From positions 1-48,881 of the forward strand of contig DATEMW010000343.1 of the NCBI GenBank assembly GCA_035275385.1: a stretch of DNA of 48,881 bases, read 5' to 3'. This DNA comes from Candidatus Methylomirabilota bacterium. GTDB taxonomy: Bacteria; Methylomirabilota; Methylomirabilia; Rokubacteriales; CSP1-6. Made by a program: the position numbers and the translations under genes. Under the pieces are notes generated by a model that did not search any database, had not been told where the DNA came from, and was given only the letters and a program-made list of their open reading frames with translations. This document shows positions 10,389 to 27,152 of the stretch, piece after piece (position 1 is the stretch's first letter; the number at the start of each line of letters is the position of its first letter).

Positions 10389-10695
10389 TCGAAGCGACGC
10401 GGGCGGATACATGGGCTGGTTTCTGTTCGGCGCGCTGCTCGGCGCCGGCATGGCGCTCCTGATGACGCCGAAGACCGGCGCGCAGGCGCGCGAGCTCCTG
10501 GCCGAGCGCGGCGGCGACGTGGCGCGGCGGGCGCAGGAATTCGCCAACGAGGCGCAGGGCCGCGCCGGCGAGTGGCTCGACAAGAGCCGCGAGATCTTCG
10601 AGGAGCAGACCCAGCGGCTCATGAGCGCGTTCGAGGCGGGCCGCGACGCCATGCGGGAAGAGATCCGCCGGGGCTCCAGCGAATCGCGTGGCTGA
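10378..10695 (+). CDS. YtxH-domain protein
   Basis: [29 protein letters not shown] is the YtxH signature (TM helix followed by PxSG/TG...R). It overlaps the DUF948 gene by 11 nt. Confidence 0.75.
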
Positions 10696-11278
10696 GATCG
10701 AGGTCCCCAACCCCGAGGAGATCCACGAGCGCGGCGAGACGTCGTTCGGCCGTCGCGCCGCGCTCACCACGGCGATCTACGCGGTCGTGCTGTCGATCGG
10801 GTCGCTCGGCGGCAACAACACGGTCAAGGAGATGCTGCTCGCCCAGCAGCAGTCATCGGACCAGTGGGCGTTCTATCAGGCCAAGGTGATCCGCGAGCAC
10901 CAGTACCGCGGCCAGAAGATGGTCTTGGAGAGCCAGCTGGCCGAGCCGTCGACGCTCAAGGGCGCCGAGCGCGCCAAGGTCGAAGCGCTCGCGGCGAAGT
11001 TCGCCGAGGAGGAGAAGCGCTACAACACGGAGAAGAAGGAGATCGAGGCGGACGCCAAGAAGCTCGAGGCGGCGCGTGACCACCGCCGCGAGCGCCATCC
11101 GTATTTCGAGTTCGGCGAGGTGCTGCTGCAGATCTCGATCGTCAGCGCCTCGGTGGCGATCCTCTCCACCTCACGCCAGATGTTCTGGTTCTCGATGGTC
11201 CTGGCAATCTGCGGCGCCGTGCTCGTCCTGAACGGGTTCGTCCCGCTCTTCTCGCTGCCCTTCCTGCACCACCACTGA
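10688..11278 (+). CDS. DUF4337-family membrane protein
   Basis: GTG start overlaps ytxH by 8 nt. The [15 protein letters not shown] motif is present, with two C-terminal TM helices typical of DUF4337. Confidence 0.7.
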
Positions 11279-11301
11279 TCGAGCCGCCGCCGCGGATCCG
11301 C

Positions 11302-11802
11302 TCATCGCTCCGCAGCGCCGGAGTCCGTGACGCGGCGGGGGATTACGCTGATCCCGCCGTTTTCCTCCAGCATGGCGACGTGCACCTGCCCGACTTCCTC
11401 GACGCCGCTCCGGCGGAGTGCCGCGTTCAGGTCGTCGAGCGTGACGCGCTCGCTCACCAGGTTGTCGTGCAGGATGCGTCCGTTGTGCACCAGCAAGGTG
11501 GGCTGGGCTTCCAGCAGCCGGCGGGCGCGCGGGAACCGAAACGTGAGCTCCACGACTAGATAGTTCGCGAGGAAGATGACCGCGGCGCCGATCAGGCCCC
11601 CGGCGAGCGAGTTGTCCGGACCGATCATCGCGTTCTGCAGCACGTTCGAGATGATCAGCAAGACGATCAGATCGAACGGTGTGAGCTGTCCGACCTGCCG
11701 CTTGCCCAGCAGCCGGAACGCCAGCAGCAGGAACAGATAGACGATGAGCGATCTGAATACCTTCTCCCAGACGCCAACGTCGGGCAGCCAGATGCTCGCC
11801 AT
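11302..11802 (-). CDS. DUF421 (YetF-like) membrane protein
   Basis: FRLLGKRQVGQLTPFDLIVLLIISNVLQNAMIG is the DUF421 core. The start lies only 6 nt after the lpdA stop. Confidence 0.8.
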   Translation of the reverse strand: MASIWLPDVGVWEKVFRSLIVYLFLLLAFRLLGKRQVGQLTPFDLIVLLIISNVLQNAMIGPDNSLAGGLIGAAVIFLANYLVVELTFRFPRARRLLEAQPTLLVHNGRILHDNLVSERVTLDDLNAALRRSGVEEVGQVHVAMLEENGGISVIPRRVTDSGAAER

Positions 11803-11808
11803 CGGCTC

Positions 11809-13191
11809 CTAGATGTGGATCGCCTGGCCCAGCGCGGCCAGCGTTGCCTCCAGGGCGGCTTCCGACAAGGTCGGGTGAGCGTGGATCGTATGGATGATCT
11901 CCTCGAGCGTCGCCTCGAGGGTGCGGCCGACCGCGAACTCGTGGATGATCTCGGTCGCCTCGGGGCCGATGATGTGGACGCCGAGGATCTCACCGGTCGC
12001 CTTGTCGGCGATCACCTTGACGAAGCCTTCGGTCTCGCCGAGCGCCACCGCCTTGCCGCTGGCCGTGAACGGAAAGCGTCCGACGGAGACCTCGCGCCCG
12101 GCTTCCTTGGCGCGCGCTTCCGTCAAGCCGATCGAGGCGATCTGCGGCCGGCAATAGATGCACGAGGGGACGTTGCCGTAGTCGACCGGCCGCGGGCTCT
12201 TGCCGGCGATGGCCTCGGCGGCGACGACGCCTTCGGCCATGGCCTTGTGCGCCAGCAGGGGTGCGCCGGCCATGTCCCCGATCGCGTAGAGCCCCTTCAC
12301 CGAGGTCTCCATCGTCGGCGACACCTTGACGAACCCGCGCTCGAGCTGCACGCCGAGGCCTTCGAGCCCGAGCCCCGTCACCTTCGCGGCGCGGCCGACG
12401 GCCATCAGGACCTGCTCGACCTCGAGCTTCTCGCCGCCGAGGTCGAGGACGGCGCCCGGACCGCCGGGCTTCACGGATGCGACCTTGACGCCGGTCTTGA
12501 CCGTGATCCCGCGCCGGGTGAACGTCCGCGTCAGCTCCTTGGAAACCTCTTCGTCCTCGATGGGGACGATGCGCGGCAGCGCCTCCAGCAGGGTCACCTC
12601 GACGCCGTACGAGGCGAAGACGTCGGCGAACTCGACACCGACCGCGCCCGCGCCGATGACCGCCAGCGACTTGGGCTTGCGCTCGTTGCGCACGGCGCCG
12701 TTCGACGAGATCACGAGCTTCTCGTCGATCGTGACGCCCGGGAGCGACTTCGGCTCCGAGCCGGTGCCGAGGATGACCGCGCGCGCCTCGAGCGTCTCGG
12801 TACCGCCGCTCCCCTTCACCTCGACGACGTTCTTCGACTTGAGCGTGCCGCGGCCGGGGAACAAAGTGATCTTGTTCTTCCGGAACAGGAACTCGACGCC
12901 CTTGGCCATTCGGTCGGCGACCCGGCGGCTCCGCTGCACGGCCTCCGGGTAGCTCGCCTCGAACCCGCTCAGGCGGATACCGAAATCCGCCGCGTGGGCC
13001 ATCAGGTTCACGACCTCGGCGTTCCGCAAGAGCGCCTTGGTCGGGATGCAGCCCCAGTTCAGGCACACGCCGCCGGGCCGGTCATCTTCGACCGTGGCCA
13101 CCGTCAGGCCGAGCTGGGCGCAGCGGATCGCCGAGACGTAGCCGCCCGGCCCGGTCCCGACCACCACGACGTCGAACTTGTGGCTCGCCAT
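11809..13191 (-). CDS. lpdA: Dihydrolipoyl dehydrogenase (E3)
   Basis: VVVVGTGPGGYVSAIRCAQLG is the FAD fold. GGVCLNWGCIPTKALL is the redox-active disulfide. The HAHPTLSEA C-terminal motif is present. Confidence 0.95.
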   Translation of the reverse strand: MASHKFDVVVVGTGPGGYVSAIRCAQLGLTVATVEDDRPGGVCLNWGCIPTKALLRNAEVVNLMAHAADFGIRLSGFEASYPEAVQRSRRVADRMAKGVEFLFRKNKITLFPGRGTLKSKNVVEVKGSGGTETLEARAVILGTGSEPKSLPGVTIDEKLVISSNGAVRNERKPKSLAVIGAGAVGVEFADVFASYGVEVTLLEALPRIVPIEDEEVSKELTRTFTRRGITVKTGVKVASVKPGGPGAVLDLGGEKLEVEQVLMAVGRAAKVTGLGLEGLGVQLERGFVKVSPTMETSVKGLYAIGDMAGAPLLAHKAMAEGVVAAEAIAGKSPRPVDYGNVPSCIYCRPQIASIGLTEARAKEAGREVSVGRFPFTASGKAVALGETEGFVKVIADKATGEILGVHIIGPEATEIIHEFAVGRTLEATLEEIIHTIHAHPTLSEAALEATLAALGQAIHI

Positions 13192-13193
13192 GG

Positions 13194-14549
13194 CTAGACG
13201 AGGAGACGCAGCGGCTCTTCGAGCAGGTGCTTGACGTCCTGGAGGAACCGGGCGCCCATGGCACCGTCCATCACGCGGTGGTCGCAGGAGATCGTCAGCA
13301 TCATGCGTCGGCCGACGCCGAGGCCCGTGTCGTCCACCACCGGCACGCGGCGAACCGATCCGACCGCCAGGATGGCCCCTTCGGGCGGATTGATGATCGC
13401 CGAGAACTCGGCGACGTCGAACATGCCGAGGTTCGAGATCGAGAACGTCGCGCCGGAGAGCTCCTGGGCTCTGAGCTTCCTGCTACGGGCGCGCTCGGCC
13501 AGGTCGCGCGCCTCGACCGCGATCTGGGCCAGCGGCTTGGCGTGGCAGTCTCGCAGGACCGGCGTGATGAGCCCTTCATCGAGCGCCACCGCGATGCCGA
13601 TGTGCGCGCGATGGAAGACGCGGATCGCGTCGCCCTGCAGCGAGGCGTTCACGCCGGGATGCTTCAGGAGCGCCAGCGCGCAGGCTCGGATCACGAAGTC
13701 GTTGACCGAGATCTTGGGCTGACCCTCCAGCGCGTTCAGCTGCTCGCGGAGCTCCCACGCCCGGTCCATCGCCACTTCGCTCGTGACGTAGAAGTGCGGG
13801 ACCGGCGCCTTCGACAGCGGCATCCGGCGCGCAATCGTCGCGCGCATGGGCGTAAGCGGAACATCTTCGAACTCCGCCCCCGCAGCCGCGGCCGGCATCG
13901 CGACAGCCGCGACACTCGCTGCAGCACCCGACCCAGCCGCCTCGACATCCCGCCGGATAATGCGTCCCCCAGGCCCCGACCCCTGAATGAGCCGCAGGTC
14001 GACTCCAGTCTGCGCCGCAATCTTCTTCGCAAGCGGCGACGCCTTCACCCGTCCTCCCTGAGCTCCCTGCCCTAAGCCAGCGGGAGCAGCGGCGACAGCG
14101 CTGACTGCCGCAGCCGGCCGAGCAGCCGGCGCCACCGGCGCTTGAGCGGGTGTCGCTGGAGCGGGACGAGCCGGGGGCGCGGCCGCCGAGGCTGCGGCCG
14201 GTGGGGTGGCCGGGGCAGGCTCGGCGCGAAGTGGGGTTTTCTGAGCGGCCGAGCCTGCCCCGGCCGCCCCGCCGGCCGCAGAAGCGACGACTGAGCCGAT
14301 GTCATCGCCAGGTTCGGCGATGACCCCGATGAGCGCGCCGATGGCGGCAGTCTCCCCGGCCGGGACGAGAATCTTGCGCAGAACGCCAGCGCCGAAAGCT
14401 TCCATTTCGACGTCAGCCTTGTCGGTCTCCACCTCGGCCAGGATGTCGCCGCCCTGGATCTTGTCGCCTTCCTTCTTGAGCCACTTGATGATCTTGCCGC
14501 TCTCCATCGCGTCGGAGAGCTTCGGCATGACGACCTTGGTGACGGCCAT
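13194..14549 (-). CDS. pdhC: Dihydrolipoamide acetyltransferase (E2) with a single lipoyl domain
   Basis: ILAEVETDKADVEMEAF is the lipoyl-lysine motif. A long Ala/Pro linker and an SPLAKKIA E3-binding domain follow. The catalytic motif is SCDHRVMDGA. Confidence 0.93.
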   Translation of the reverse strand: MAVTKVVMPKLSDAMESGKIIKWLKKEGDKIQGGDILAEVETDKADVEMEAFGAGVLRKILVPAGETAAIGALIGVIAEPGDDIGSVVASAAGGAAGAGSAAQKTPLRAEPAPATPPAAASAAAPPARPAPATPAQAPVAPAARPAAAVSAVAAAPAGLGQGAQGGRVKASPLAKKIAAQTGVDLRLIQGSGPGGRIIRRDVEAAGSGAAASVAAVAMPAAAAGAEFEDVPLTPMRATIARRMPLSKAPVPHFYVTSEVAMDRAWELREQLNALEGQPKISVNDFVIRACALALLKHPGVNASLQGDAIRVFHRAHIGIAVALDEGLITPVLRDCHAKPLAQIAVEARDLAERARSRKLRAQELSGATFSISNLGMFDVAEFSAIINPPEGAILAVGSVRRVPVVDDTGLGVGRRMMLTISCDHRVMDGAMGARFLQDVKHLLEEPLRLLV

Positions 14550-14552
14550 CGG

Positions 14553-15566
14553 CTAGCTCCCGCTCGCCTGACCGTTCGTGTGGCCATTGGCGTTGCACAC
14601 GCGTCGGACCGCGTTGACGATCCAGTCCTTCGACGGCGTCTTGAGCCGCTCGAGATTGCGCGCGTACGGCATCGGCGCGTTCGCGCCGGTCACGCGCTCA
14701 ACCGGCGCGTCGAGATCGTCGAACGCCTGCTCGGTGACCGACGCGGCGATCTCCGAGCCCATGCCGGCGAAGCCCGCGCCCGCCTCGACCACGACGACCC
14801 GGTGGGTCTTGCGCACCGATCGGATGATCGTCTCGGTGTCCATCGGGCGAAGGGTGCGCGGGTCGACGAGCTCGACGGAGATGCCCTCCTTCTCGAGCTC
14901 TTCCGCCGCCTCCATCGCCCGATACATCATGCCCATGTAGGCGATCACCGTGACGTCGGTCCCCTCGCGGCGCACGATCGCCTTGCCGAGCGGGATCGTG
15001 AAATCCGGATCCTCGGGCACCTCGCCCTTGACGTTGTAGAGCGTCTCGGACTCGATGAAGATGACCGGGTTGTCGTCGCGGATCGACGATTTCAAGAGCC
15101 CCTTGGCGTCCATCGGCGTCGTCGGGCGGACGACCTTCAGGCCGGGCACGTGATAGAAGTACGTCTCCATCGACTGCGAGTGCTGCGCGGCCAGCTGCGC
15201 GGCCGGGCCGCCGGGGCCGCGGATGACGATCGGCACGTTGAACTGACCGCCCGACATGTAGTTGATCTTGGCGGCCGAGTTGACGATCTGATCCAGAGCG
15301 AGCAACGCGAAGTTGAAGGTCATCATCTCGACGACGGGGCGCAGCCCGACCATCGCGGCGCCGATGCCGACGCCCGTGAACCCCGATTCGGCGATGGGCG
15401 TGTCGACGATGCGCTGGGGGCCGAACTCCTTCAGGAGCCCCTGCGTGACCTTGTACGCCCCCTCGTAGAGCCCGACTTCCTCGCCGATCACGAAGACGTT
15501 CGGATCGCGCCGCATCTCCTCGCGCAGCGCCATGTTCAGCGCTTCGCGATAGGTCATCACCGCCAT
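14553..15566 (-). CDS. pdhB: Pyruvate dehydrogenase E1 beta subunit
   Basis: MTYREALNMALREEMRRDPNVFVIGEEVGLYEGAYKVTQGLLKEFG is a typical heterotetrameric E1-beta N-terminus. Confidence 0.93.
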   Translation of the reverse strand: MAVMTYREALNMALREEMRRDPNVFVIGEEVGLYEGAYKVTQGLLKEFGPQRIVDTPIAESGFTGVGIGAAMVGLRPVVEMMTFNFALLALDQIVNSAAKINYMSGGQFNVPIVIRGPGGPAAQLAAQHSQSMETYFYHVPGLKVVRPTTPMDAKGLLKSSIRDDNPVIFIESETLYNVKGEVPEDPDFTIPLGKAIVRREGTDVTVIAYMGMMYRAMEAAEELEKEGISVELVDPRTLRPMDTETIIRSVRKTHRVVVVEAGAGFAGMGSEIAASVTEQAFDDLDAPVERVTGANAPMPYARNLERLKTPSKDWIVNAVRRVCNANGHTNGQASGS

Positions 15567-15567
15567 C

Positions 15568-16581
15568 TCAGGCCTCCTTGTAGATGTCGGTGAAGAGCCA
15601 GTCGCCAGGCGGCTCCGGCGAGGCGTCGGCGTAGGCCACCGCCTCGTCGACCCGGTCGTTCACGTCCTTCTCCATCGCCCGGATATCGGCCTCCGAGAGA
15701 AGCCCCGCGGCGATGATCTTGTCCCGGAACAGCACGATCGGATCGCGGAGCTTCTCCCGCTCGACCTCTTCCTTCGTGCGGTAGACGGCGCCCGCCGGAT
15801 CGCGCATCGAGTGACCGCGATAGCGGTAGGTGTCGGCCTCGATCAGCGCCGGCGTCTTCTGCTGCCGGGTCCGCGAGACCGCCCGGCCGACCGCGTCGCG
15901 GACCGCGAGCACGTCCATGCCGTCCACCCGCTCGGCCGGGATGCCGTAGGTCTGGCCGAATTTCCAGATCTCGGTCTGCGCCAGCGCACGCTCGACCGAG
16001 GTGCCCATCGCGTAGCGATTGTTCTCACACAGGAAGATGACCGGCAGCTTCCACAGCGCGGCCAGGTTCATCGACTCGTGAAACTCGCCCTCGGGTACGG
16101 CGCCGTCGCCGAAATAGCACACGATCACCTGATCGCCGCCCCGGTACTTGATCGCAAAGCCGACGCCGACCGCGATCGGCAGGTGCGCCCCGACGATCGC
16201 ATGGCCGCCGAGGAAGTTGGTGGTCTTGTCGAACAGGTGCATCGAGCCGCCCTTGCCCTTGGAGAGCCCGTCGCGGCGGCCGTAGAGCTCGGCCATCACC
16301 CGCTTGGGGTCCGAGCCCTTGGCCAGACAGTGGCCGTGCTCGCGATACGCGGAGATGGCGTAGTCGTCTGGGCGGAGGACGGACGTGGCGCCGACGGCCA
16401 CCGCCTCTTCGCCGATGTAGAGATGGAGGAAGCCGCCGATCTTGCCCAGCGCGTACCCCTCCGCCGCCTTTTCCTCGAAGCGGCGGATCAGGGTCATGTC
16501 GGACAAGAGCCGCTTTGCCGCCTCGGCGTCGACGCCGAACCCAGAAGACGCCGCCTCACTCCGTGCCAGTGTCTTGGCCAT
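15568..16581 (-). CDS. pdhA: Pyruvate dehydrogenase E1 alpha subunit
   Basis: GFLHLYIGEEAVAVG, GKGGSMH, the ThDP motif GDGAVPEGEFHESMNLAALWKLPVIFLCENNRYAMGT, and TYRYRGHSMRDP. GGAGGA RBS lies in the 9-nt spacer after the nuoK stop. Confidence 0.93.
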   Translation of the reverse strand: MAKTLARSEAASSGFGVDAEAAKRLLSDMTLIRRFEEKAAEGYALGKIGGFLHLYIGEEAVAVGATSVLRPDDYAISAYREHGHCLAKGSDPKRVMAELYGRRDGLSKGKGGSMHLFDKTTNFLGGHAIVGAHLPIAVGVGFAIKYRGGDQVIVCYFGDGAVPEGEFHESMNLAALWKLPVIFLCENNRYAMGTSVERALAQTEIWKFGQTYGIPAERVDGMDVLAVRDAVGRAVSRTRQQKTPALIEADTYRYRGHSMRDPAGAVYRTKEEVEREKLRDPIVLFRDKIIAAGLLSEADIRAMEKDVNDRVDEAVAYADASPEPPGDWLFTDIYKEA

Positions 16582-16590
16582 GGATCCTCC

Positions 16591-16893
16591 CTACCAACGC
16601 ATGACGCTCAGCTCGTCCACCGACAGCCGCCGGCGAACGCGGAAGATCGTCACGATGATTGCCAGTCCGACAGCGACCTCGGCCGCCGCCACCGCCATCA
16701 CGAAGAACACGACGGCTTGGCCGTCGAGATTGCCCACGCGCTGGCCGAAGGCGACCAGCGCCAGATTCGCCGCATTCAGCATGAGCTCGATCGACATGAA
16801 GATCACGAGCGGGTTGCGCCGGACCACGACGCCCACGACCCCGATCGAGAAGAGCACCGCTGACAGCGCCACATAGTAGCTCTCAGGCACCAT
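16591..16893 (-). CDS. nuoK: NADH-quinone oxidoreductase subunit K (cluster 1)
   Basis: 100 aa with 3 TM helices. Both conserved membrane glutamates are present ([22 protein letters not shown]). Confidence 0.93.
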
Positions 16894-16926
16894 GTCGTTC
16901 CACCAGCCGGTCGCGGGCCTGCCCGG

Positions 16927-17421
16927 TCACGCGCGACGCCTCGCGAGAAGCAGCACGCCCACCATCGCGGCCAGCAGCAGCACCGAGGTGAGCTCGAACG
17001 GGAACAGGTAGCTCGTGAACAGCAGCCGACCGACCGCGCCGGCGGTCCCGCTGGGGCGGGTGGCCGCGCCGGGCCCGGTGAAGCGACCGGCCACGACGAA
17101 TACCAGGAGCAGCAGGAGGATTCCACCGATCGGCAGCGCGAGCAGCCGGGCGCTGCGCCGGGGGTCGGGCCCGGTCTCCTCCTTGCCCGGGATGAGCACC
17201 ATGATCGCGAACACGAACAGCACCATGATCGCGCCGGCGTAGACGATGACCTGCGCGGCGGCGAGGAACTCCGCACCCAGCATCAGGTAGAGCGCCGCCA
17301 CCGATCCCAGGTTGACGACCAGGAACAGGGCGCCGTGAATCGCGTTCGGCCTCAGGATGAGCCCCAATGCCGACCCCACCGTGATCGCCGCGATGACGAA
17401 GAAGGACACGTACGCCATCAC
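16927..17421 (-). CDS. nuoJ: NADH-quinone oxidoreductase subunit J (cluster 1)
   Basis: LGAEFLAAAQVIVYAGAIMVLFVFAIM is the NuoJ core. The position between nuoI and nuoK also supports the call. Confidence 0.9.
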   Translation of the reverse strand: MMAYVSFFVIAAITVGSALGLILRPNAIHGALFLVVNLGSVAALYLMLGAEFLAAAQVIVYAGAIMVLFVFAIMVLIPGKEETGPDPRRSARLLALPIGGILLLLLVFVVAGRFTGPGAATRPSGTAGAVGRLLFTSYLFPFELTSVLLLAAMVGVLLLARRRA

Positions 17422-17966
17422 GCTCTCCGGTTGGCCGGGATAGGAATCGGCGATCGCGGGCGTCCGGTCGGCTCGGCGGGCTCGAGGGACAGCAACATCT
17501 CCTTCGTATAGATCATCCCACCTCGGCTATACGAGGAGAACTCGAGGATGCCGGTGTCCATGCGGATCGCGTCCTCGGGGCACGCCTCCACGCAGTAGCC
17601 GCAGAAGACGCACTTGCCGAGGTCGATATCGAATCGCCGCGGGACTTTCTCGATCTCGGGGTTCGGATGCTCGTCCGCGACGATGTAGATGCAGTGGGCC
17701 GGACAGACGGTCTCGCACATCATGCAGGCCACGCACCGAGGCGAGCCGTCCTCGCGCCGCACCAGGCGGTGCAGCGAGCGCAGGCGCGGCGAGTACGGCC
17801 GCCGCTCCTCCGGGTACTGGATCGTGACCGCGCCGCTCTCGCCCTTACGGCCGAACGCGCGGCCCGTGTGGCGCGCCATGTTACGGAAGAAATGCGCGGC
17901 CGTCAGGCCGAGCCCGGCCAGCACCTCGACCAGGTAGAACCGCTGACGCAGGTTCATCGGGCTCAT
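17418..17966 (-). CDS. nuoI: NADH-quinone oxidoreductase subunit I (cluster 1)
   Basis: Start at ATG 17966 (ATGA overlap with the nuoH stop). Two 4Fe-4S motifs are present: CVACMMCETVCP and CVFCGYCVEACP. Confidence 0.92.
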   Translation of the reverse strand: MSPMNLRQRFYLVEVLAGLGLTAAHFFRNMARHTGRAFGRKGESGAVTIQYPEERRPYSPRLRSLHRLVRREDGSPRCVACMMCETVCPAHCIYIVADEHPNPEIEKVPRRFDIDLGKCVFCGYCVEACPEDAIRMDTGILEFSSYSRGGMIYTKEMLLSLEPAEPTGRPRSPIPIPANRRA

Positions 17967-19051
17967 CGCGTGCCCCAGGCTGCCAGCGCCAGGCCGGTCA
18001 GCACGATGTTGGCGATCGCCAGCGGAAAGAGGCCGAGCCACCCGAGCCGCATCGCCTGGTCGTAGCGGAATCGCGGCAGGGTCCAGCGGATCAGCATCAG
18101 CACGAAGATCACAGCGCCGACCTTACCCACGAACGCCCCCACCTGCAGCAGGGTCACCAGGAGCGGCGAGAGCGAGATGCCGGACCCCCACGGAAAGCGG
18201 AAGCCCTCGGCGAACAGGTACGGGATCTGCCAGCCGCCCAGGAACAGCGAGGTGCTGAGGCCCGCGAGGACGATCGTCTCGACCATGTCGGTCATCAAGA
18301 ACATGCCGAACTTCATCCCGCTGTACTCGACGAAGTAGCCGATGATCTCCGACTCGCCCTCCGGCGTGTCGAACGGGATCCGCTTCGTGGCGGCGATGCC
18401 GGCGGTCACGAACAGGATGAAGGCGAGCGGCTGGGTGATGATGCCCCAGGCCGGGATCCAGCCCCACAACAGGTGGCCCTGGCCGCGCACGATGTCCATC
18501 AAGTTCAGCGAGCCGTGGATCATGACGACGCCCATGATCGAGGCGCCGATCGCGATCTCGGCCGAGATCATCAGCGCCGCGGCGCGCTGGCCGCCGAGCA
18601 GCGCGAAGTTGTTGGCCGACGACCAGCCCGCCATCATGACGCCGTACACGCCGAGCGAGAGCATCGCGAAGACGTAGAGCACGCCCACGTTCAACGTCAC
18701 CGCCTGAAGCGGCACGACGCGGCCCGCCACCTGCAGGGTGTCGCCGAATGGGATCGAGGCGAACGCGACCAGCGCGAAGAAGACCGAGACGGCGGGTGCC
18801 AGCTCGAACAGGAGCCGATCGGCCCGCGCCGGGCGGAAATCTTCCTTCGTCAGCATCTTCAAGGTGTCGGCCAGCGGGTGAAACAGGCCGAGCGCTGTGA
18901 TGCCGAAGATCGAGGCGCGGTTGGCGCCGATGCGATCCTGCATGATCGCCGACTGCTTGCGCTCGACCCAGCCCAGCAGCGCGGCCACGTTCAGCACGAA
19001 GAGCATCACGAACGCGACGCGTCCGAACGCGATGGCCAGGTCGATGAGCAT
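17963..19051 (-). CDS. nuoH: NADH-quinone oxidoreductase subunit H (cluster 1)
   Basis: Start at ATG 19051, 2 nt after the nuoG stop. WVERKQSAIMQDRIGANR and PEGESEIIGYFVEYSGMKFG are NuoH motifs. The 864-aa ORF-track version is an artefactual extension through nuoG. Confidence 0.92.
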   Translation of the reverse strand: MLIDLAIAFGRVAFVMLFVLNVAALLGWVERKQSAIMQDRIGANRASIFGITALGLFHPLADTLKMLTKEDFRPARADRLLFELAPAVSVFFALVAFASIPFGDTLQVAGRVVPLQAVTLNVGVLYVFAMLSLGVYGVMMAGWSSANNFALLGGQRAAALMISAEIAIGASIMGVVMIHGSLNLMDIVRGQGHLLWGWIPAWGIITQPLAFILFVTAGIAATKRIPFDTPEGESEIIGYFVEYSGMKFGMFLMTDMVETIVLAGLSTSLFLGGWQIPYLFAEGFRFPWGSGISLSPLLVTLLQVGAFVGKVGAVIFVLMLIRWTLPRFRYDQAMRLGWLGLFPLAIANIVLTGLALAAWGTR

Positions 19052-19053
19052 GG

Positions 19054-20688
19054 CTACGAGGCGGCTCCGGACGGACCCGCTCCGCGATGTCCCGACGCGC
19101 CCGCCGTGGCCAGCACGCGTCCGGTGTCGCCGAGCAGCTGATAGCTGAGCCCGGCGAACGCCGGCACCGCGTCGACGAGCTGGCGAAACAGGTGCTCGGC
19201 GCGGGTCGCCTGCAGCGATTCGCCGAGCAGGGTCATGACCCGGCCGATGATGTCCCACTCGGGCAGCGCCTGGCCGAGCGGCTCGATCGCGGTCCGGAAG
19301 CGCTGGACGCGTCCCTCGAAGTTGGTATAGGTCCCCTCGCGCTCGGTCCACGCCGCGGCCGGAAGCACCCAGTGCGAATGGGCGCTCGTCCAGTTCGCGT
19401 TCGAGCCGGTGAAGACCACCGTGTCCACGACCCGCAACGCCTCGAGCACGTCGCGCTCCGGCAAGGCGCCCGCCAGGAGGTCGTGGCCGAAGATCCACAA
19501 GAACTTGAGCCGCCGCTGGCCCGCGGCCTCGATGACGGTGCGCGCGTCGGCGCCGAACCCCAGAAGCTCGGCGCCGAGCGAGTTCGGATTCTTGTCGGCG
19601 CGGATCAGGAAATCGTCTTCGTCGCCCGGAACGCGCGACGGTACGTGGCCCGCGACCTGGGTGACTCCGCGCAGATCGAGCAGGCGGCGCAGCGCGAAGA
19701 GGTCTTCGTTGGCCATCTTCGGCGACGCGATGACGCCGATCTGCGCCGGCGAAAGCCGCCGGAGCGCGCCGGCCACCGCGGCGATCCCCTGCTCCCACGT
19801 CGCGTCGGTGCTCGTTCCGCCTTCCCGCTGCGCGGGAACGACCAGCCGGTCCGGCGCGTCCACGAAACCAAAGCCATAGCGCCCGGCGTCGCAGAGCCAC
19901 CACTTGTTGACCTCGGCGTTGAAGCGCGGCTTGAGCCGGGCGACGCGGCGCCCCTCGGCGTGGTGCGGGCGGCGCCGGTTCACGTGGACGTCGATGTTGC
20001 AGCCGCGGGCGCAGCCCGGGCAGACCGACTTGGCGGTGTCGAGGTACCAGACCCGCACCTGGAACCGGAAGTCGCGATCGGTCAGGGCCCCGACCGGACA
20101 GATGTCGACGACGTTGGCGGAGTACTTGTTGTCGAGCTCGTGGCCCGGGAAGAGGCCGATCTCCGAGTGGTCGCCGCGCTGGAAGATCCCGAGCTCGCCC
20201 GTGTGCGTGATCTCGTCGCAGTAGCGCACGCACCGTGAGCAGAGGATGCACCGCTCGGCGTCGAGCATCACGTGCGGCCCGAGCGGCACGGCCTTGGGCT
20301 TGTGGACCTTCTCGTCCTTCATGCGCGGGTCGTAGAGCCCGTGCTTCATGTAGTAGATCTGAAGCCAGCACTCGCCGGCCTGATCGCACACCGGACAGTC
20401 GAGCGGATGGTTGATCAGGTGGAACTCCATGATCGACTTCCGCGTCTCGCGCACCCGGTCGGTCTCGGTATTGACGACCATCCCCTCGGTCGCGACCGTG
20501 TTGCACCCGATCGTCGGGCGCGGCGTCTTCTCGATGTCGACCATGCAGAGACGGCACTGCCCCGCGATCGAGAGACCGGGGTGATAGCAGTAGTGCGGCA
20601 CCTCGACGCCCGCGGCGCGCGCGGCCTCGATGAGGTTGGTCCCCGCCGGAACCTCGACCTCCTTGCCGTTGATCGTGAGCTTAGGCAT
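19054..20688 (-). CDS. nuoG: NADH-quinone oxidoreductase subunit G, compact 544-aa form (cluster 1)
   Basis: YCYHPGLSIAGQCRLCMV...GCNT is the 2Fe-2S site. HPLDCPVCDQAGEC and CILCSRCVRYC...ICPVGAL are 4Fe-4S sites. CPGCARGC...C is an N7-like motif. Confidence 0.9.
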   Translation of the reverse strand: MPKLTINGKEVEVPAGTNLIEAARAAGVEVPHYCYHPGLSIAGQCRLCMVDIEKTPRPTIGCNTVATEGMVVNTETDRVRETRKSIMEFHLINHPLDCPVCDQAGECWLQIYYMKHGLYDPRMKDEKVHKPKAVPLGPHVMLDAERCILCSRCVRYCDEITHTGELGIFQRGDHSEIGLFPGHELDNKYSANVVDICPVGALTDRDFRFQVRVWYLDTAKSVCPGCARGCNIDVHVNRRRPHHAEGRRVARLKPRFNAEVNKWWLCDAGRYGFGFVDAPDRLVVPAQREGGTSTDATWEQGIAAVAGALRRLSPAQIGVIASPKMANEDLFALRRLLDLRGVTQVAGHVPSRVPGDEDDFLIRADKNPNSLGAELLGFGADARTVIEAAGQRRLKFLWIFGHDLLAGALPERDVLEALRVVDTVVFTGSNANWTSAHSHWVLPAAAWTEREGTYTNFEGRVQRFRTAIEPLGQALPEWDIIGRVMTLLGESLQATRAEHLFRQLVDAVPAFAGLSYQLLGDTGRVLATAGASGHRGAGPSGAAS

Positions 20689-21904
20689 GGGGGATCAGCG
20701 CCTCGAACTCGCCCCGGAACTTCTCGATGTAGGAGATGTACGGTCCGACCGCGCCGTCGTAGAAGGCGCAGATCGTCGTCCCCGCGCCCCGCTTGGCCAC
20801 GTCGAGGATCGTGTCGAGATCGTCCTTGTGGCCGTGCCCGTCGACGATCCGGTGGACCATCTTGTAGATCCAGCCGGTCGACTCGCGGCACGGCGTGCAC
20901 TGCCCGCACGACTCGTGCGCGTAGAACCGGGCGAGGACCATGAGGGCCTCGGGGATCGGCACGCTCTCGTCCATCACCATGACACCGGCCGAGCCGATCA
21001 TGGTGCCGGCGTTCTTGAGCCCGTCGACGTCCATCGTGACGTCGATCTCGTCCGCGGTCAGGATCGCGGCCGACCCGCCGCCCGGGACGACCGCCTTGAG
21101 CCGGCCGGTGCCGCTGACTCCGCCGGCCATCTCGATCAGCTGGCGCAGGGTGATCGACACCGACGCCTCGTACACCGCGGGCTTCTTCACCCGACCGGAC
21201 ACCGAGTACATCCGGGTGCCGCCCTGCGTCTTGGTGCCGAGCCCGGCGAACCACTCGGCGCCGCGGGCCACGATCGGCGGGACGCAGCAGAGCGTCTCGA
21301 CGTTGTTGACGATCGTCGGCTGGCCGAACGCGCCCTTGATGGCCGGAAACGGCGGCTTGATCTTCGGCCAGCCCTTCTTGCCCTCGAGCGACGAGAGCAG
21401 GCCGGTCTCCTCGCCGCAGATGTAGGCGCCGGCCCCCCGGTGGATGACGATGTCGAGGCCCTGGCCCAAAAGACCGGCGTCGTACGCTTCCTTCACCGCC
21501 GCGCTGAAGCGTCGCCAGGGCTGGATGTATTCACCCCGGATGTAGACGAAGCTCTTCGTGCACCGGACGGCGCGCGCCGCGATCAGCATCCCCTCGATCA
21601 GCGCGTGCGGGTCGCGCTCGAGGAGATACCGGTCCTTGAAGGTTCCAGGCTCGCCCTCGTCCGCGTTGACGACCAGATAGACCGGGCCCGTGTGGTTCTT
21701 GGGAATGAACGACCACTTCGTCCCGGTCGGGAATCCGGCGCCGCCCAGGCCGCGGAGGTTGGCCTTCTTGACCTCCTCGGTGATCGCCGCAGGCTCCATC
21801 TGGCGGGCCTTGTCCCACGCGGCATAACCACCGCCCGCCCGATAGGCGGCGAGCGTGTGTGAGTCCGGGTTCGAGAAATTCCGCATGAGGACGATCTCGG
21901 CCAT
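20681..21904 (-). CDS. nuoF: NADH-quinone oxidoreductase subunit F (cluster 1)
   Basis: LRGLGGAGFPTGTKWSF is the FMN/NADH site. ESCGQCTPCRE is the N3 cluster motif. Confidence 0.95.
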   Translation of the reverse strand: MAEIVLMRNFSNPDSHTLAAYRAGGGYAAWDKARQMEPAAITEEVKKANLRGLGGAGFPTGTKWSFIPKNHTGPVYLVVNADEGEPGTFKDRYLLERDPHALIEGMLIAARAVRCTKSFVYIRGEYIQPWRRFSAAVKEAYDAGLLGQGLDIVIHRGAGAYICGEETGLLSSLEGKKGWPKIKPPFPAIKGAFGQPTIVNNVETLCCVPPIVARGAEWFAGLGTKTQGGTRMYSVSGRVKKPAVYEASVSITLRQLIEMAGGVSGTGRLKAVVPGGGSAAILTADEIDVTMDVDGLKNAGTMIGSAGVMVMDESVPIPEALMVLARFYAHESCGQCTPCRESTGWIYKMVHRIVDGHGHKDDLDTILDVAKRGAGTTICAFYDGAVGPYISYIEKFRGEFEALIPHA

Positions 21905-22449
21905 CAGCGAAGTCCTTCGAGGAGCCGGTCGAGCTTCTCCGGCGTGAGGTTCAGCTCGTACCGGTCGTCCACCTGCGCCATCGGCGCGGCCTCACAGGCG
22001 CAGAGGCACTCGACCGTGAGGAACGTCACGCGACCGTCCTCGGTCGTCTCGCCGGGCTCGATCCCGAGCTTCTGCTTCAGGTGGGCGATGATCTTCGGCG
22101 CGCCGGCCATGTGGCAGGAGAGGGTGTGGCACACCGCGACGACGTGACGGCCGGGCCGCTCGCGGAAGTAGAGCGTGTAGAACGTGACGACCTCGTGCAC
22201 GTGGGCCGGCGACAGATCGAACAGCGAGGCGACGTATTCTTCGGCCTCGAGCGAGATGTAGCCGAAGGTCTCCTGCGCCATGTGGAGGACCGGCAGCAGC
22301 GCGCCGCGCTTGTCGGGATAGAGCGACTGCAGCCGGCGGACCTCGGCCAGCTGCGCCTCACTGAATTTTATTGTAGCGGGGTCCGTGAGGCCGGCTCGTA
22401 CCGCGGGTGTTCGACTTGAGGCGCCGGTGGCTCCGTGCGTATCGCTCAT
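21904..22449 (-). CDS. nuoE: NADH-quinone oxidoreductase subunit E (cluster 1)
   Basis: The thioredoxin-like 2Fe-2S subunit pattern is present: VCHTLSCHMAG...VECLCACEAAP. Confidence 0.92.
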   Translation of the reverse strand: MSDTHGATGASSRTPAVRAGLTDPATIKFSEAQLAEVRRLQSLYPDKRGALLPVLHMAQETFGYISLEAEEYVASLFDLSPAHVHEVVTFYTLYFRERPGRHVVAVCHTLSCHMAGAPKIIAHLKQKLGIEPGETTEDGRVTFLTVECLCACEAAPMAQVDDRYELNLTPEKLDRLLEGLR

Positions 22450-23819
22450 CGATCGAGCTCCCCGCCGATCATGTTGACCGAGCCGAACGTCGGGATCAGG
22501 TCGGCCACCATCTCACCCACGATCATCCGGTGGAGCGCCGCCAGCGGCGGCAAGCACGGCGGGCGGCACCGGACCCGGTAGGGCCGGTCGGAGCCATCCG
22601 AGACCACGTAGAACCCGAGCTCGCCGTTCGCGCCCTCGACCGGGAAGTAGGCCTCGCCCGCCGGCGGCTGGATCCCGTAGCCCTCCATGATCAACATGAA
22701 GTGGTTCATCAGGCCCTCGATCGACCCGTACGCGTTCTCCTTCGGCGGGAGCACGACCCGCTTGTCGTCGACGTTGACCCGGCGGGCGGCGTCGCGTTGC
22801 TGGCCCTGCAGATTCGGCGACAGGGTGATCGGCAGGAGCAGCAGGCCCTCGGTCTTGCCCTGCTTGCCGCGATCGACGTACGAGGCGGGGTCGATCGGCC
22901 GTCCCTCGAAGTCGACGTTGATCGGGCCGGTCGGAATCGACGCGAGCGCCTGCTCGGCGATTCGCATCGACTGCTCCATCTCGGCCATGCGCACCAGGTA
23001 GCGCGCGTAGTTGTCGCCGTCCTTCTGTGTCGGGACCTCGAACGTGAGCCGGTCGTAGACGTAGTACGGCTGCGCGCGGCGCACGTCGTACCCGACGCCG
23101 GCCGCGCGCAGCAGAGGCCCGGTGATCGCGTAGCCGATCGTCTCCTCGCGCGACAGCACGCCGACCCCGACCATGCGGTCCATGAAGATGCGGTTGCCGG
23201 TCAGGAGGCGATGGACCTCGTCGAGCACCTCGCGCGTCTGCTTGAACGCGTGGAGCGTCTTCTCGGCGAACCCGTCGGGCAGGTCGGCCTTGACGCCGCC
23301 CACGCGGCCGTACGAGATCGTCAGCCGCGCGCCGGTCACGTCCTCGACCAGCTCCCACAGGAACTCGCGCGCCTTGATCATGTACAGGAAGACGGTGAAG
23401 GCGCCGAGCTCCATGGAGGACGCGCCGATGCAGGTCAGGTGGTCGCAGATCCGCGAGATCTCGGACATGATCACGCGGATGTACTTGCACCGCTCGGTGA
23501 TGTCGATGCCGAGCAGCTTCTCGACCGCCGAGGCGTAGCCGAAGTTGTTGATCAGCGGCGACACGTAGTTGAGCCGGTCGGTGTACGGGATCGCGTTGTT
23601 CCAGCCGCCCTGCTCGCAGTCTTTCTCGAACGCGCGGTGCAGGTAGCCGATCTCGACGTCGGCGTTCACGATCGTCTCGCCGTCGAGCTCGGTGACGATG
23701 CGGATGATCCCGTGCATCGCGGGATGGGCCGGCCCGACGCCGATGTGCACATTCTGAGGGCCGCCGCCGGTGCCGCTCCCCTCCCCCAGCATGAACTCGC
23801 GCCGCGTCGTCTTCGCCAT
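22446..23819 (-). CDS. nuoD: NADH-quinone oxidoreductase subunit D with a ~46-aa internal insertion (457 aa, cluster 1)
   Basis: VGPAHPAMHGIIRIV, EIGYLHRAFEK and IPYTDRLNYVSP retain the quinone-site His and Tyr. The C-terminus is GSVNMIGGELDR. There is extra sequence between GPINVD and DDKRVVLPPKE. Confidence 0.92.
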   Translation of the reverse strand: MAKTTRREFMLGEGSGTGGGPQNVHIGVGPAHPAMHGIIRIVTELDGETIVNADVEIGYLHRAFEKDCEQGGWNNAIPYTDRLNYVSPLINNFGYASAVEKLLGIDITERCKYIRVIMSEISRICDHLTCIGASSMELGAFTVFLYMIKAREFLWELVEDVTGARLTISYGRVGGVKADLPDGFAEKTLHAFKQTREVLDEVHRLLTGNRIFMDRMVGVGVLSREETIGYAITGPLLRAAGVGYDVRRAQPYYVYDRLTFEVPTQKDGDNYARYLVRMAEMEQSMRIAEQALASIPTGPINVDFEGRPIDPASYVDRGKQGKTEGLLLLPITLSPNLQGQQRDAARRVNVDDKRVVLPPKENAYGSIEGLMNHFMLIMEGYGIQPPAGEAYFPVEGANGELGFYVVSDGSDRPYRVRCRPPCLPPLAALHRMIVGEMVADLIPTFGSVNMIGGELDR

Positions 23820-23822
23820 GGT

Positions 23823-24311
23823 CTAGCTCGCCGGCCCGATCAGAGGCTGTCGCCGGTTGATCGGATAGTCCTTGCGCAGCGGATGGCCGACGAACTCCTC
23901 GTAGAGCAGGAGCCGGCGCAGATCGGGATGGCCCTCGAAGCGCACGCCGAACATGTCCCAGACCTCGCGCTCGAGCCAGTTCGCGATGGGCCAGAGCCCG
24001 AGCGCGCTCGGGACACGGGCGTCGTCCTCGTCCACGCGCACCTTGAGACGCAGCCGATGGTTCCGGGCGATCGAGTAGAGGTGATAGACGACCTCGAAGC
24101 GGGGCCCGTCTTCGCGGCCGGGAAACTTCTGGTAGTCGACCGCGGTGAGGTCCATCAGGACATCGAACGCCAGCGCCGCCTCGTCCCGGCAGTGAGCCAG
24201 GACGCCGAGCAGCGCGTCGCGCGCGACGATCGCCGTCAGGTCGCCTCGATGGTCTTCCGTCTCGACGATGGCGTCGCCGAACCGTCGCCGGAGCTCGTCG
24301 AGAATGGGCAC
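23823..24311 (-). CDS. nuoC: NADH-quinone oxidoreductase subunit C (cluster 1)
   Basis: ANWLEREVWDMFGVRFEGHPDLRRLL is the NuoC signature. Confidence 0.92.
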   Translation of the reverse strand: MPILDELRRRFGDAIVETEDHRGDLTAIVARDALLGVLAHCRDEAALAFDVLMDLTAVDYQKFPGREDGPRFEVVYHLYSIARNHRLRLKVRVDEDDARVPSALGLWPIANWLEREVWDMFGVRFEGHPDLRRLLLYEEFVGHPLRKDYPINRRQPLIGPAS

Positions 24312-24315
24312 GCGC

Positions 24316-24774
24316 TCAGTACCTCTGCGCCTGGGCGACGATCTTGTCCTGCAGCTTCATGAGCCCGTCGATCACCGACTCGGGACGAGGCGGGCAGCCC
24401 GGGATGTAGACGTCGACCGGAATGATCGTGTCGATCCCTTGCACGGTGGCGTAGTTGTCGTAGAAGCCGCCGGTACACGTGCACACGCCGAACGCGACGA
24501 CCCACTTGGGCTCGGTCATCTGGTCGTAGATGCGCTTGAGGACGGGCGCCATCTTGTGGCTGATCGTGCCGACGACGAAGAGCACGTCGGCCTGCCGCGG
24601 CGAGAAGCGCGGGAGCCCCGCGCCGAACCGATCGATATCGTAGTGCGAGCACGCCGTGGCCATGTATTCCATGCCGCAGCACGCGGTCACGAACGGGTAC
24701 TGGAAGATGGAGTACTTCCGCGCCCAGCCGATGGCCTCGTCGAGCTTGCTCGTGAAGAAGCTGCCTACTCCCAT
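24316..24774 (-). CDS. nuoB: NADH-quinone oxidoreductase subunit B (cluster 1)
   Basis: Start at ATG 24774, a 10-nt overlap with the nuoA end. The N2 ligands are present: ACCGMEYM, GVCTCTGG, PGCPPRPE. Confidence 0.92.
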   Translation of the reverse strand: MGVGSFFTSKLDEAIGWARKYSIFQYPFVTACCGMEYMATACSHYDIDRFGAGLPRFSPRQADVLFVVGTISHKMAPVLKRIYDQMTEPKWVVAFGVCTCTGGFYDNYATVQGIDTIIPVDVYIPGCPPRPESVIDGLMKLQDKIVAQAQRY

Positions 24775-25115
24775 TCGAGGCCCCCTTTGCGCCAGATGTA
24801 CGCGAACCCGAGCATCAGGATGCCCAGGAACACGAGCATCTCGACGAAACCGAACCAGCCGAGCTGCCGGTACAACATGGCCCACGGCCAGATGAACAGG
24901 AGCTCGATGTCGATCAGGATGAAGAAGATCGCGATCGTCGAGAACTTGATCGCGAACTTGCCCTCGGCGAGCTCGATCACGTCCTTGCCGCACTCGAACG
25001 GCTCGGACTTCACCGGCGTGAGCCGGCGCGGCGCGAGCAGGCTCGGCAGCATGATGAGCGCGCCCGCGACGAGCGCCGAGATCGCAAAGACCATGAGAAT
25101 AGGAGCGTAAGTCAT
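24765..25115 (-). CDS. nuoA: NADH-quinone oxidoreductase subunit A (cluster 1)
   Basis: 116 aa with 3 TM helices. SEPFECG and FILIDIELLFIWPWA motifs are present. The ATG overlaps the lipA stop (ATGA). Confidence 0.92.
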   Translation of the reverse strand: MTYAPILMVFAISALVAGALIMLPSLLAPRRLTPVKSEPFECGKDVIELAEGKFAIKFSTIAIFFILIDIELLFIWPWAMLYRQLGWFGFVEMLVFLGILMLGFAYIWRKGGLEWE

Positions 25116-26017
25116 GTCGCCTGCTCTGCCTGGTGTTTCGCGTGATAGGAGCTGCGGACGAGCGGGCCGGACTCGACGTGGCTGAAGCCGAGCTCGCGGC
25201 CGATGGCGCCGAGCTCGGTGAACTCATCCGGGTGGTAGTACTTCTCGACCGGTAGATGCTGCGCCGACGGCCGGAGATACTGGCCGAGGGTCAGGATCGC
25301 GACGTCGACGTCGGCCGCGCGCAGGTCGCGCATGGTGGCGACGAGCTCGTCTTTCGTCTCGCCGAGCCCCAGGATGATCCCCGACTTCCGCGTCAGCGCC
25401 GGCGCCACCGCGCGCGCGTGACGGAAGAGCCCGAGCGTGCGCTCGTAGCGGCCGCCGTGGCGGGCGACCTTGTAAAGGCGCGGCACCGTCTCGGTGTTGT
25501 GGTTCAGGATGTCCGGCGCCGCCGCGATGACGGTCTCGAGCGACGTCGGGCTGCCCTGGAAGTCGGGGATGAGGACCTCGACCCGGCAGCGCGGGGCGTG
25601 ATGCCGGACGGCGCGCACTGTCGCCGCCCAGTGGGCGGCACCGCCGTCGGCCAGGTCGTCGCGGTTGACCGAGGTGATCACCACGTGCTCGAGACCGAGA
25701 TCGGCGGCCGCACGGCCGATGCGCTCGGGCTCCTCGCGGTCCTCCCAGACCGGCCTGCCGTGCGCCACCGCACAGTACCCGCAGTTCCGGGTGCACACGT
25801 CGCCCAGGATCATGAAGGTCGCCGTCGCGTCTTCCCAGCACTCACCGATGTTCGGGCAGTGGGCTTCCTCGCAGACCGTGTGGAGGTTCCACTCGCGCAG
25901 ACGGCCCTTCAGCCGGAGGTAGTTCGGCCCGCCGGGCGCCCGCACCTTGAGCCACGCCGGCTTTCGACCCAGGAGCGGATGACTGTCGGGCTGGATCACC
26001 GGAAGTGATTGCGCCAT
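25112..26017 (-). CDS. lipA: Lipoyl synthase
   Basis: RKPAWLKV, LHTVCEEAHCPNIGECW and the radical-SAM motif CTRNCGYCAV. The start is placed at ATG 26017 (MAQSLPV...). In-frame alternatives exist at 26050 and 26083. Confidence 0.93.
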   Translation of the reverse strand: MAQSLPVIQPDSHPLLGRKPAWLKVRAPGGPNYLRLKGRLREWNLHTVCEEAHCPNIGECWEDATATFMILGDVCTRNCGYCAVAHGRPVWEDREEPERIGRAAADLGLEHVVITSVNRDDLADGGAAHWAATVRAVRHHAPRCRVEVLIPDFQGSPTSLETVIAAAPDILNHNTETVPRLYKVARHGGRYERTLGLFRHARAVAPALTRKSGIILGLGETKDELVATMRDLRAADVDVAILTLGQYLRPSAQHLPVEKYYHPDEFTELGAIGRELGFSHVESGPLVRSSYHAKHQAEQAT

Positions 26018-26179
26018 GAGCAGCCGTTCAGTTCGTTCCAACCGGCTCATTATGCCACACGGCGGCGGGTCGGCGGCCACCACCCCAGGTGGAGCCGCAC
26101 CGGTTTCGAGCCGCTCGGCGTTCAGTGTTCGAGGACGCGCTCAGGATCGGAGAGCCGAGACTCACGGAGAGAAAAGGGT

Positions 26180-26264
<85 letters not shown>

Positions 26265-26287
26265 GAGTGCGAGGCGAAAGTATAGCG

Positions 26288-27148: not shown

Positions 27149-27152
27149 GCGC

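Follow-up and report, generated by a model that had tools for sequence, protein, structure and literature searches.

What becomes of a respiratory complex I whose operon ends at nuoK and runs on into the genes of pyruvate dehydrogenase? This question is raised by a stretch of 48,881 nt (hereafter the window) from a Candidatus Methylomirabilota bacterium of the order Rokubacteriales (contig DATEMW010000343.1 of assembly GCA_035275385.1, positions 1 to 48,881 of the forward strand). In it lipA, encoding lipoyl synthase, is followed by nuoA to nuoK, here called cluster 1, and by the genes of the pyruvate dehydrogenase complex (PDH), while a second nuo block, cluster 2, reaches the end of the window and includes nuoL, nuoM and nuoN, the genes of the distal pump arm. 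Complex I is usually regarded as a fixed machine of 14 (or 11) subunits. In Rokubacteriales, uncultured bacteria that abound in soil, the core that oxidises NADH is kept intact across the order without a pump arm encoded in cis, and it is joined to PDH and to the lipoylation enzyme.

Conservation of the lipA-nuo-pdh array

Species-representative genomes were scanned with the NuoH of cluster 1 (NuoH1), yielding 80 loci at 75-96% identity. These belong to Candidatus Rokubacteria/Methylomirabilota or to bins evidently containing such contigs; all comparators are metagenome-assembled genomes (MAGs), and several bins bear wrong taxon labels. The order lipA-nuoABCDEFGHIJK-pdhA-pdhB-pdhC-lpdA on one strand was found in 80 out of 80 loci as far as the contigs reach, also on contigs as long as 916 kb and 1.05 Mb (L004 and L071), and because it recurs in all these related genomes the array is more than a chance arrangement. 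lipA stands directly 5′ of nuoA in each of the 54 loci that reach it, and the nuo gene order ends in the same way throughout: in the 67 loci that span both nuoK and pdhA, nuoK is always succeeded by pdhA, with an insert in between in two of them, and never by nuoL. Even at E<1e-3, no NuoL/M/N-like match was obtained within 10 kb of nuoH in the 80 loci (~1.2 Mb). The absence of nuoL/M/N in cis, first noted in the window, holds in every one of these relatives, and the gene set of a 14-subunit complex I, in which NuoL/M/N are encoded with the complex, was not found in cluster 1.

An assembly chimera or a decaying pseudo-operon was considered solely on account of the metagenomic origin of the sequence; nothing was found in its favour, and we give this explanation practically no weight. 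These junctions recur in 80 assemblies that were produced independently and in many different studies, among them the contigs of 0.9-1.05 Mb. Among the best 120 matches of a protein search (all at least 84% identical, hence offering no view of sister lineages), the NuoH of the window (362 aa) turned up at 100% identity on 10 contigs, of which one belongs to GCA_035650235.1. The reading frames have no internal stops. In the 48 species with both nuo clusters, identity to the window for clusters 1 and 2, respectively, was 85.1 and 85.2% for NuoK, 75.4 and 74.3% for NuoJ, 88.0 and 87.1% for NuoD, and 94.2 and 94.4% for NuoB. Judged by these values, both cores are under equal purifying selection with neither decaying, and the initial annotation was right to hold that cluster 1 is not a decaying pseudo-operon. 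Recurrence in 80 assemblies, open frames and purifying selection together led us to discard chimera and pseudo-operon alike.

The tightness of the array is a different matter. In the window, 17 uninterrupted minus-strand genes free of internal stops extend from lipA (25112-26017) to a gene for a DUF421/YetF membrane protein (11302-11802), with spacers of -10 to +33 nt. An ATGA overlap joins lipA to nuoA, as one also joins nuoH to nuoI; a 9-nt spacer, GGAGGATCC, separates nuoK from pdhA; and the PDH genes are 1, 3 and 2 nt apart, with 6 nt before the DUF421 gene. The co-directional arrangement, its coordinates and these junctions agree with what had been described at the outset. Among relatives, tight coupling is common, not universal. 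The nuoA/nuoB overlap of -10 nt is the commonest state, the ATGA overlap of lipA and nuoA is kept in 22 of 54 loci with a spacer of ~90-275 nt in ~20 others, and between nuoK and pdhA the median spacer is 13 nt, with 200-300 nt in several species. The earlier proposal of one tightly coupled 17-gene transcript fits the spacing in the window; lineage-wide it does not stand, many species having ~90-300 nt between lipA and nuoA and between nuoK and pdhA.

In the two species with an interrupted nuoK-pdhA junction, a 3-kb insert sits exactly between the two genes (L010:12598-15334; L033 ~12442-15461). The insert of L010 codes for both subunits, alpha and beta, of a 2-oxoacid:ferredoxin oxidoreductase (POR/POR_N; TPP_enzyme_C/PFO_beta_C), a gene content that reinforces the link of the array to 2-oxoacid oxidation. 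The conserved unit is lipA, nuoA-K and pdhABC-lpdA, with 2-oxoacid oxidation and NADH re-oxidation as its theme.

At the 3′ end the array loses its uniformity. The DUF421 gene, which had been counted as an array member, follows lpdA in only 5 of the loci extending that far, as against 22 with an acyl-CoA dehydrogenase gene a few nucleotides off, directly in most of those inspected; we rejected it as a functional member and regard it as a local passenger. The loci with acyl-CoA dehydrogenase include L015, L024, L029, L030 and L042, and in L011 the gene lies further downstream.

Encoded proteins and expression of the array

Gene identities were assigned by Pfam and NCBIfam profile matches, which confirmed all named genes, and cofactor motifs were read directly in the translations. 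G+C content of the window is ~68%, and third-position G+C separates real genes from shadow open reading frames (ORFs); the start codons of nuoB, nuoH and nuoI were re-set before the coordinates were verified. All genes below lie on the minus strand, and the families named are those of Pfam unless stated otherwise.

Cluster 1 contains the whole of the NADH module (N-module): nuoE (21904-22449, 181 aa; 2Fe-2S_thioredx), nuoF (20681-21904, 407 aa; Complex1_51K, SLBB and NADH_4Fe-4S) and a short form of nuoG (19054-20688, 544 aa; Fer2_4, NADH-G_4Fe-4S_3, Fer4_Nqo3 and a partial Molybdopterin domain), with the site for flavin mononucleotide (FMN) and NADH and the Fe-S motifs. NuoF carries GAGAYICGEETGL and ESCGQCTPCR (FMN/NADH and N3 motifs). 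Equally present is the quinone module (Q-module), made up of nuoB (24316-24774, 152 aa; Oxidored_q6), nuoC (23823-24311, 162 aa; Complex1_30kDa), nuoD (22446-23819, 457 aa; Complex1_49kDa in two stretches) and nuoI (17418-17966, 182 aa; Fer4 families). Its N2 cluster cysteines are found in NuoB as CC...GVCTCTGG...PGCPP, NuoI has two 4Fe-4S motifs of the form CxxCxxCxxxCP, and alignment of NuoD to solved structures places its quinone ligands, the His in GPAHPAMHG and the Tyr in IPYTDRLNY. The proximal membrane subunits complete the set, namely NuoA (24765-25115, 116 aa; Oxidored_q4), NuoH (17963-19051; NADHdh), NuoJ (16927-17421, 164 aa; Oxidored_q3) and, as the product of the last nuo gene, NuoK (16591-16893, 100 aa; Oxidored_q2), which has both membrane glutamates when aligned to NuoK of M. 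smegmatis and T. thermophilus. The motifs of NuoF, NuoB, NuoI, NuoD and NuoK that had been cited as signs of an intact core are all there.

Similarity to established subunits is high. NuoD of cluster 1 matches solved 49-kDa subunits at E ~1e-84 to 1e-97 and passes the cut-off of NCBIfam NF004739, and NuoK is 61% identical to that of M. smegmatis and 58% to that of T. thermophilus, these two being 59% identical to each other. NuoG scores 432.9 bits against an NCBIfam cut-off of 470 because its C-terminal part is missing, including much of the molybdopterin-like domain. NuoD also has an insertion of ~45 aa (aa 303-349, ~22773-22910) that is seen in no solved 49-kDa/NuoD structure of complex I.

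The genes on either side of cluster 1 are no less clearly assigned. LipA (301 aa; Radical_SAM and LIAS_N; alternative GTG start at 26083) reaches the NCBIfam lipA equivalog with 364.6 bits against a cut-off of 310. Downstream of nuoK, pdhA (15568-16581, 337 aa; E1_dh) encodes E1 alpha, with 453.8 bits for TIGR03182 (PDH_E1_alph_y equivalog; cut-off 393.85), and pdhB (14553-15566, 337 aa; Transket_pyr and Transketolase_C) encodes E1 beta, with 506 bits for NF006667 (cut-off 321) and 498.6 for NF008854 (cut-off 454). The E2 dihydrolipoamide acetyltransferase of pdhC (13194-14549, 451 aa; Biotin_lipoyl, E3_binding and 2-oxoacid_dh; one lipoyl domain) obtains 433.7 bits for TIGR01349 (PDHac_trf_mito), just below the cut-off of 445, and the E3 dihydrolipoyl dehydrogenase of lpdA (11809-13191, 460 aa; NCBIfam lipoamide_DH) 555 bits for TIGR01350 (cut-off 409). 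With E1 alpha, E1 beta and E3 above their equivalog cut-offs, the profile scores argue for a specific assignment to PDH; specificity of the E2 for pyruvate is likely, not certain. The last gene of the array in the window encodes 166 aa with DUF421 and YetF_N matches.

Taken as a pathway, the array would work as follows. Pyruvate would be oxidised by the lipoate-dependent PDH, whose E2 lipoyl domain would carry an octanoyl group into which LipA, the product of the first gene of the array, puts sulfur atoms. E3 would hand the electrons to NAD+, and the co-encoded NuoEFG-BCDI core would re-oxidise the NADH and reduce membrane quinone. The enzyme that makes NADH, the one that lipoylates it and the one that re-oxidises NADH are inherited together and, in this genome at least, probably co-transcribed.

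As for transcription, a gene for tRNA-Leu(GAG), overlooked in the initial annotation, lies at 26180-26264 on the minus strand between the opp permease gene oppC and lipA. It was called by ARAGORN and by Rfam (48.5 bits), the Rfam scan of the array giving nothing besides it, and the same tRNA is found 5′ of lipA on the same strand, at variable distance, in 17 of 27 related loci. Just upstream of it, at 26279-26307 (minus strand), TTGTCA-17-TATACT resembles a sigma-70 promoter. This is the sole promoter-like site in 10600-26500, where ~1.1 would be expected by chance, so that its position rather than statistics makes it a promoter candidate. Inside the array we saw no convincing intrinsic terminator, only 9 weak consensus matches against 5.3 +/- 2.3 expected by chance, in agreement with the earlier observation that a hairpin with U-tract is absent. 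Because of the gene overlaps and the spacers of at most 33 nt, we infer that a single transcript, starting at or after the tRNA-Leu promoter, is likely in this genome, and internal promoters are possible in relatives with longer spacers.

The second nuo cluster and possible sources of the pump arm

Where, then, could NuoL, NuoM and NuoN come from? The only antiporter-like genes in the window are nuoN2 (42038-43450), nuoM2 (43447-44973) and nuoL2 (44970-46796), whose identical copies on contigs L081-L086 match Pfam Proton_antipo_M/Proton_antipo_N. On the same minus strand they are preceded by the proximal genes of cluster 2, nuoK2 (46801-47103), nuoJ2 (47100-47594), nuoI2 (47591-48172) and nuoH2 (48162 onwards, cut at the window end, 48881). 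Contigs near-identical to the window (L081-L083) show the full cluster as nuoA2-B2-C2-NIPSNAP-D2-H2-I2-J2-K2-L-M-N, preceded by a divergent response-regulator/PilZ gene and followed by genes for a TetR regulator and an extracytoplasmic function (ECF) sigma factor, rplU, rpmA, obg and proB. nuoE, nuoF and nuoG are missing, and one operon contains the gene content of an 11-subunit complex-I-like enzyme; the layout is repeated in ~75 further Rokubacteria loci. The NIPSNAP gene between nuoC2 and nuoD2 (L083:2959-3591) encodes 211 aa with two NIPSNAP repeats. It is present in ~75 Rokubacteria loci, not in the same operon type of Vicinamibacterales/Acidobacteriota bins, and its product may be an accessory or electron-input subunit. 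With no NADH module and with NIPSNAP at the C/D position, the cluster-2 enzyme presumably takes its electrons from another donor. Ferredoxin is the donor usually proposed for enzymes without an N-module.

A genome scan with the NIPSNAP alignment matched 245 stretches (230 relatives). When the best 80 of these 230 were used, cluster 2 turned up in at least 53 of the 80 assemblies that have cluster 1, and on at least 13 contigs it is placed ~33-38 kb 5′ of nuoH1 and oriented as it is in the window. Scanning with NuoM2 was informative on the anatomy and linkage of cluster 2, not as a census of presence and absence, and the scan with NuoL2 was swamped by the universal HVWLPDAM motif, two Rokubacteria loci being among the matches listed. 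The idea that the second block could provide L/M/N gains a concrete candidate from this co-occurrence and synteny, although the block turns out to be not a full complex I but an 11-subunit type without NuoEFG.

A few irregularities were met among these matches. In L167/L248 (CAWBMV010000001.1) nuoJ2 was not detected and a weak NuoM-like match stands between nuoK2 and nuoL2, which may reflect a frameshift or a local assembly rearrangement. L245, L186, L286, L013, L028, L078 and others are near-identical to Rokubacteria yet binned as Gaiellaceae, Nitrosocosmicus, Nitrosotalea, Acidoferrum or Binatia, most likely through mis-binning. Vicinamibacterales and Acidimicrobiia bins contain operons of the cluster-2 type whose NuoM is 73-81% identical, a presence that either mis-binning or horizontal transfer could explain.

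The two cores are not recent copies of one another. Paralogous subunits are only 32-51% identical, for which reason a recent duplication of one nuo cluster was rejected, and the cores are old and divergent. When operons of other phyla were compared, 53 of 54 without nuoF were closer to cluster 2, and 9 of 14 with nuoF were closer to cluster 1, all of these having nuoL directly after nuoK. This resemblance indicates that the missing LMN is a derived loss from a canonical ancestor, and cluster 1 descends from a canonical 14-gene operon whose nuoLMN were lost or displaced. Cluster 2 is of the regular 11-subunit type, with L/M/N orthologous to those in Acidobacteriota- and Myxococcota-labelled bins. 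A capture of the original cluster-1 LMN by cluster 2 was also considered and rejected, since L2/M2/N2 have their orthologs in cluster-2-type operons that stand alone in other phyla.

Both loci combined hold exactly one N-module, one LMN module and two cores. This complementarity, and the co-occurrence and linkage of the clusters across the lineage, support a shared NuoLMN. Tentatively, and as a serious possibility rather than a probable one, we infer that cluster 1 is a working canonical core (NuoEFG, NuoBCDI and NuoAHJK) which docks a NuoN-M-L module made in trans, and that nuoLMN at the 3′ end of cluster 2 is the donor, so serving two different cores. In solved structures one face of the three-helix NuoK packs against NuoN, and NuoK1, being as near to canonical NuoKs as those are to each other, shows none of the relaxation expected of a lipid-exposed face. 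Several points weigh against this sharing. Identities of only 49% between K1 and K2, 36% for J, 38% for A and 35% for H do not guarantee that NuoN2 could dock onto NuoK1/J1/A1; operons of the cluster-2 type with their own LMN are self-contained in Acidobacteriota- and Myxococcota-labelled bins; and L2/M2/N2 of Rokubacteria are ordinary orthologs of these, showing nothing to suggest that they have adapted to a second partner. Translational coupling of nuoL2M2N2 to A2-K2 (4-nt spacers or overlaps) further suggests no obvious surplus for a second core, and, canonical and 11-subunit complex I often co-occurring in other phyla, co-occurrence alone is weak evidence for sharing.

The fate of proton translocation depends on whether the arm is shared, separately encoded or absent, and the last two possibilities have their own merits. 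Perhaps a dedicated, canonical-type nuoLMN lies at a third locus of the 6-8 Mb genome, while cluster 2 keeps its LMN for itself, as it does where it acts as a self-contained unit in other phyla. Strong conservation of NuoK1, which implies some NuoN partner, would be satisfied by such a split, and dispersed nuo genes are well documented (Nitrospina gracilis, PMC3578206; myxobacteria, PMC2330069); a cluster-2-type nuoL-M-N with no nuoA-K in the 10 kb upstream was seen in L211 (Armatimonadota JBMFOT010000021.1). Nevertheless, the 80 genomes hold no L/M/N-like sequence within 10 kb of nuoH1, a genome-wide search not having been made, nor is there any beside cluster 2 beyond its own three genes, and an intermediate state, in which nuoLMN would lie a little way past lpdA, was met in no lineage. 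We consider a split operon possible, with more doubt than belief. Lower still, and in our opinion unlikely, stands an enzyme without any pump arm, in which NuoA-K alone would form an NADH:quinone oxidoreductase translocating few protons (through the E-channel only) or none, as a low-coupling outlet for PDH-derived NADH. The absence of LMN in cis throughout the lineage, an intact core under purifying selection and the tight PDH linkage, which fits a redox-balancing (valve) role, are in its favour, as is the activity that complex I variants without distal subunits retain at reduced stoichiometry (E. coli without NuoL; the Yarrowia subcomplex without ND4/ND5). To our knowledge, however, no known member of the complex I/group-4 hydrogenase superfamily is without an antiporter-like subunit. 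Constraint on NuoK1 and NuoJ1 is moreover no weaker than on NuoK2 and NuoJ2, whose neighbour is a NuoN, and the closeness of NuoK1 to canonical NuoKs tells against an arm-less enzyme as well. Cluster 1 offers no extra membrane subunit or helix to cap the exposed face, DUF421 not being conserved, and an 11-subunit machine would be costly for the job of the single-subunit NDH-2.

Relation to known systems and genomic surroundings

The closest relative is the canonical 14-subunit complex I (NDH-1) of T. thermophilus, M. smegmatis, E. coli and Paracoccus. Cluster 1 shares with it the N-module, the Q-module, NuoA/H/J/K and all motifs, and its NuoK is within the range (58-61% identity) of the Thermus and mycobacterial subunits. 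It differs in having PDH genes and not nuoL/M/N after nuoK, in being headed by lipA, and in its short NuoG and the insertion in NuoD. Cluster 2, by contrast, resembles the 11-subunit complex-I-like enzymes without N-module of Chlorobium, Desulfitobacterium and the cyanobacterial NDH-1 types (PMC3144371, PMC11238625). Its content is exactly A, B, C, D, H, I, J, K, L, M and N with no EFG, although in Rokubacteria it possesses the tandem-NIPSNAP gene and adjoins a canonical core without LMN. Relative to these enzymes cluster 1 is the reverse case, with the N-module present and the pump arm absent.

Dispersal of membrane-arm genes has precedents. In cyanobacteria ndhB, ndhD and ndhF are dispersed and the distal NdhD/NdhF are exchanged on one core; if the arm is shared in Rokubacteria, the reverse would apply, one LMN set serving two divergent cores. 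Myxobacteria have separate nuoEFJKLMN and nuoIHGDBA clusters (PMC2330069), and in Nitrospina gracilis nuoN stands apart from nuoA-M (PMC3578206). Like these split sets, the Rokubacteria case would involve membrane-arm subunits encoded apart yet able to join the complex. It differs in that the nuo genes break off precisely at nuoK, with PDH genes in the place of the missing ones, and in that no separate LMN locus was seen in the loci examined.

Coupling of PDH to NADH oxidation is itself not without parallel, since E. coli PdhR controls pdh, ndh and cyo, and PDH has been reported to bind mitochondrial complex I. The likeness to PdhR lies in the coordination of NADH production at the pyruvate node with NADH re-oxidation; the difference is that in Rokubacteria the coupling is by a gene array, including the lipoylation enzyme, and not by a shared regulator. 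The literature searched contained no description of a canonical core that ends at nuoK, continues into pdh and is headed by lipA, and on complex I of Rokubacteria nothing beyond "components of NADH dehydrogenase complex I", in line with the initial annotation, which knew of no described lipA-nuoA..K-pdh operon. A recent survey of complex I variants by hidden Markov models distinguishes complete, EFG-less and "incomplete" classes, and the case of cluster 1 is not among them.

What the array would mean depends on the arm. Sharing, the arrangement we tentatively prefer, would be a new modular form of assembly, with one distal pump module for two electron-input cores. If there is no arm, the enzyme would be a natural minimal complex I bearing on the debate over the site and number of proton pumping, the first member of the complex I/group-4 hydrogenase superfamily without an Mrp-type pump subunit and a natural test of the E-channel alone. 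Should the arm be encoded elsewhere, the fusion of lipA, nuo and pdh would still be an undescribed hard-wiring of NADH production to its oxidation. The array also illustrates that pathway-completeness calls such as "complex I complete" can mask mosaics of this kind in MAGs.

The genes around the array in the window deserve a short description. Between the array and cluster 2, the 16-kb interval 26288-41971 is all on the minus strand and contains housekeeping genes: an opp-type ABC transporter, tpiA-pgk-gap, comF-like, LapB-like TPR and dksA-like genes, rsfS, an ORF of 532 aa whose C-terminal domain is of the cytidylyltransferase (NadD-like) type, pro genes, obg, rpmA-rplU, and genes for an ECF sigma factor and a TetR regulator. 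That genes of glycolysis precede the lipA-nuo-pdh array may not be coincidental. On the other side, three small genes on the plus strand (9996-11278) are transcribed towards the end of the array. Of these, the first is DUF948-like, the middle one (10378-10695) has no family match and the last is DUF4337; homologs of the three are found downstream of the array in ~20 related loci.

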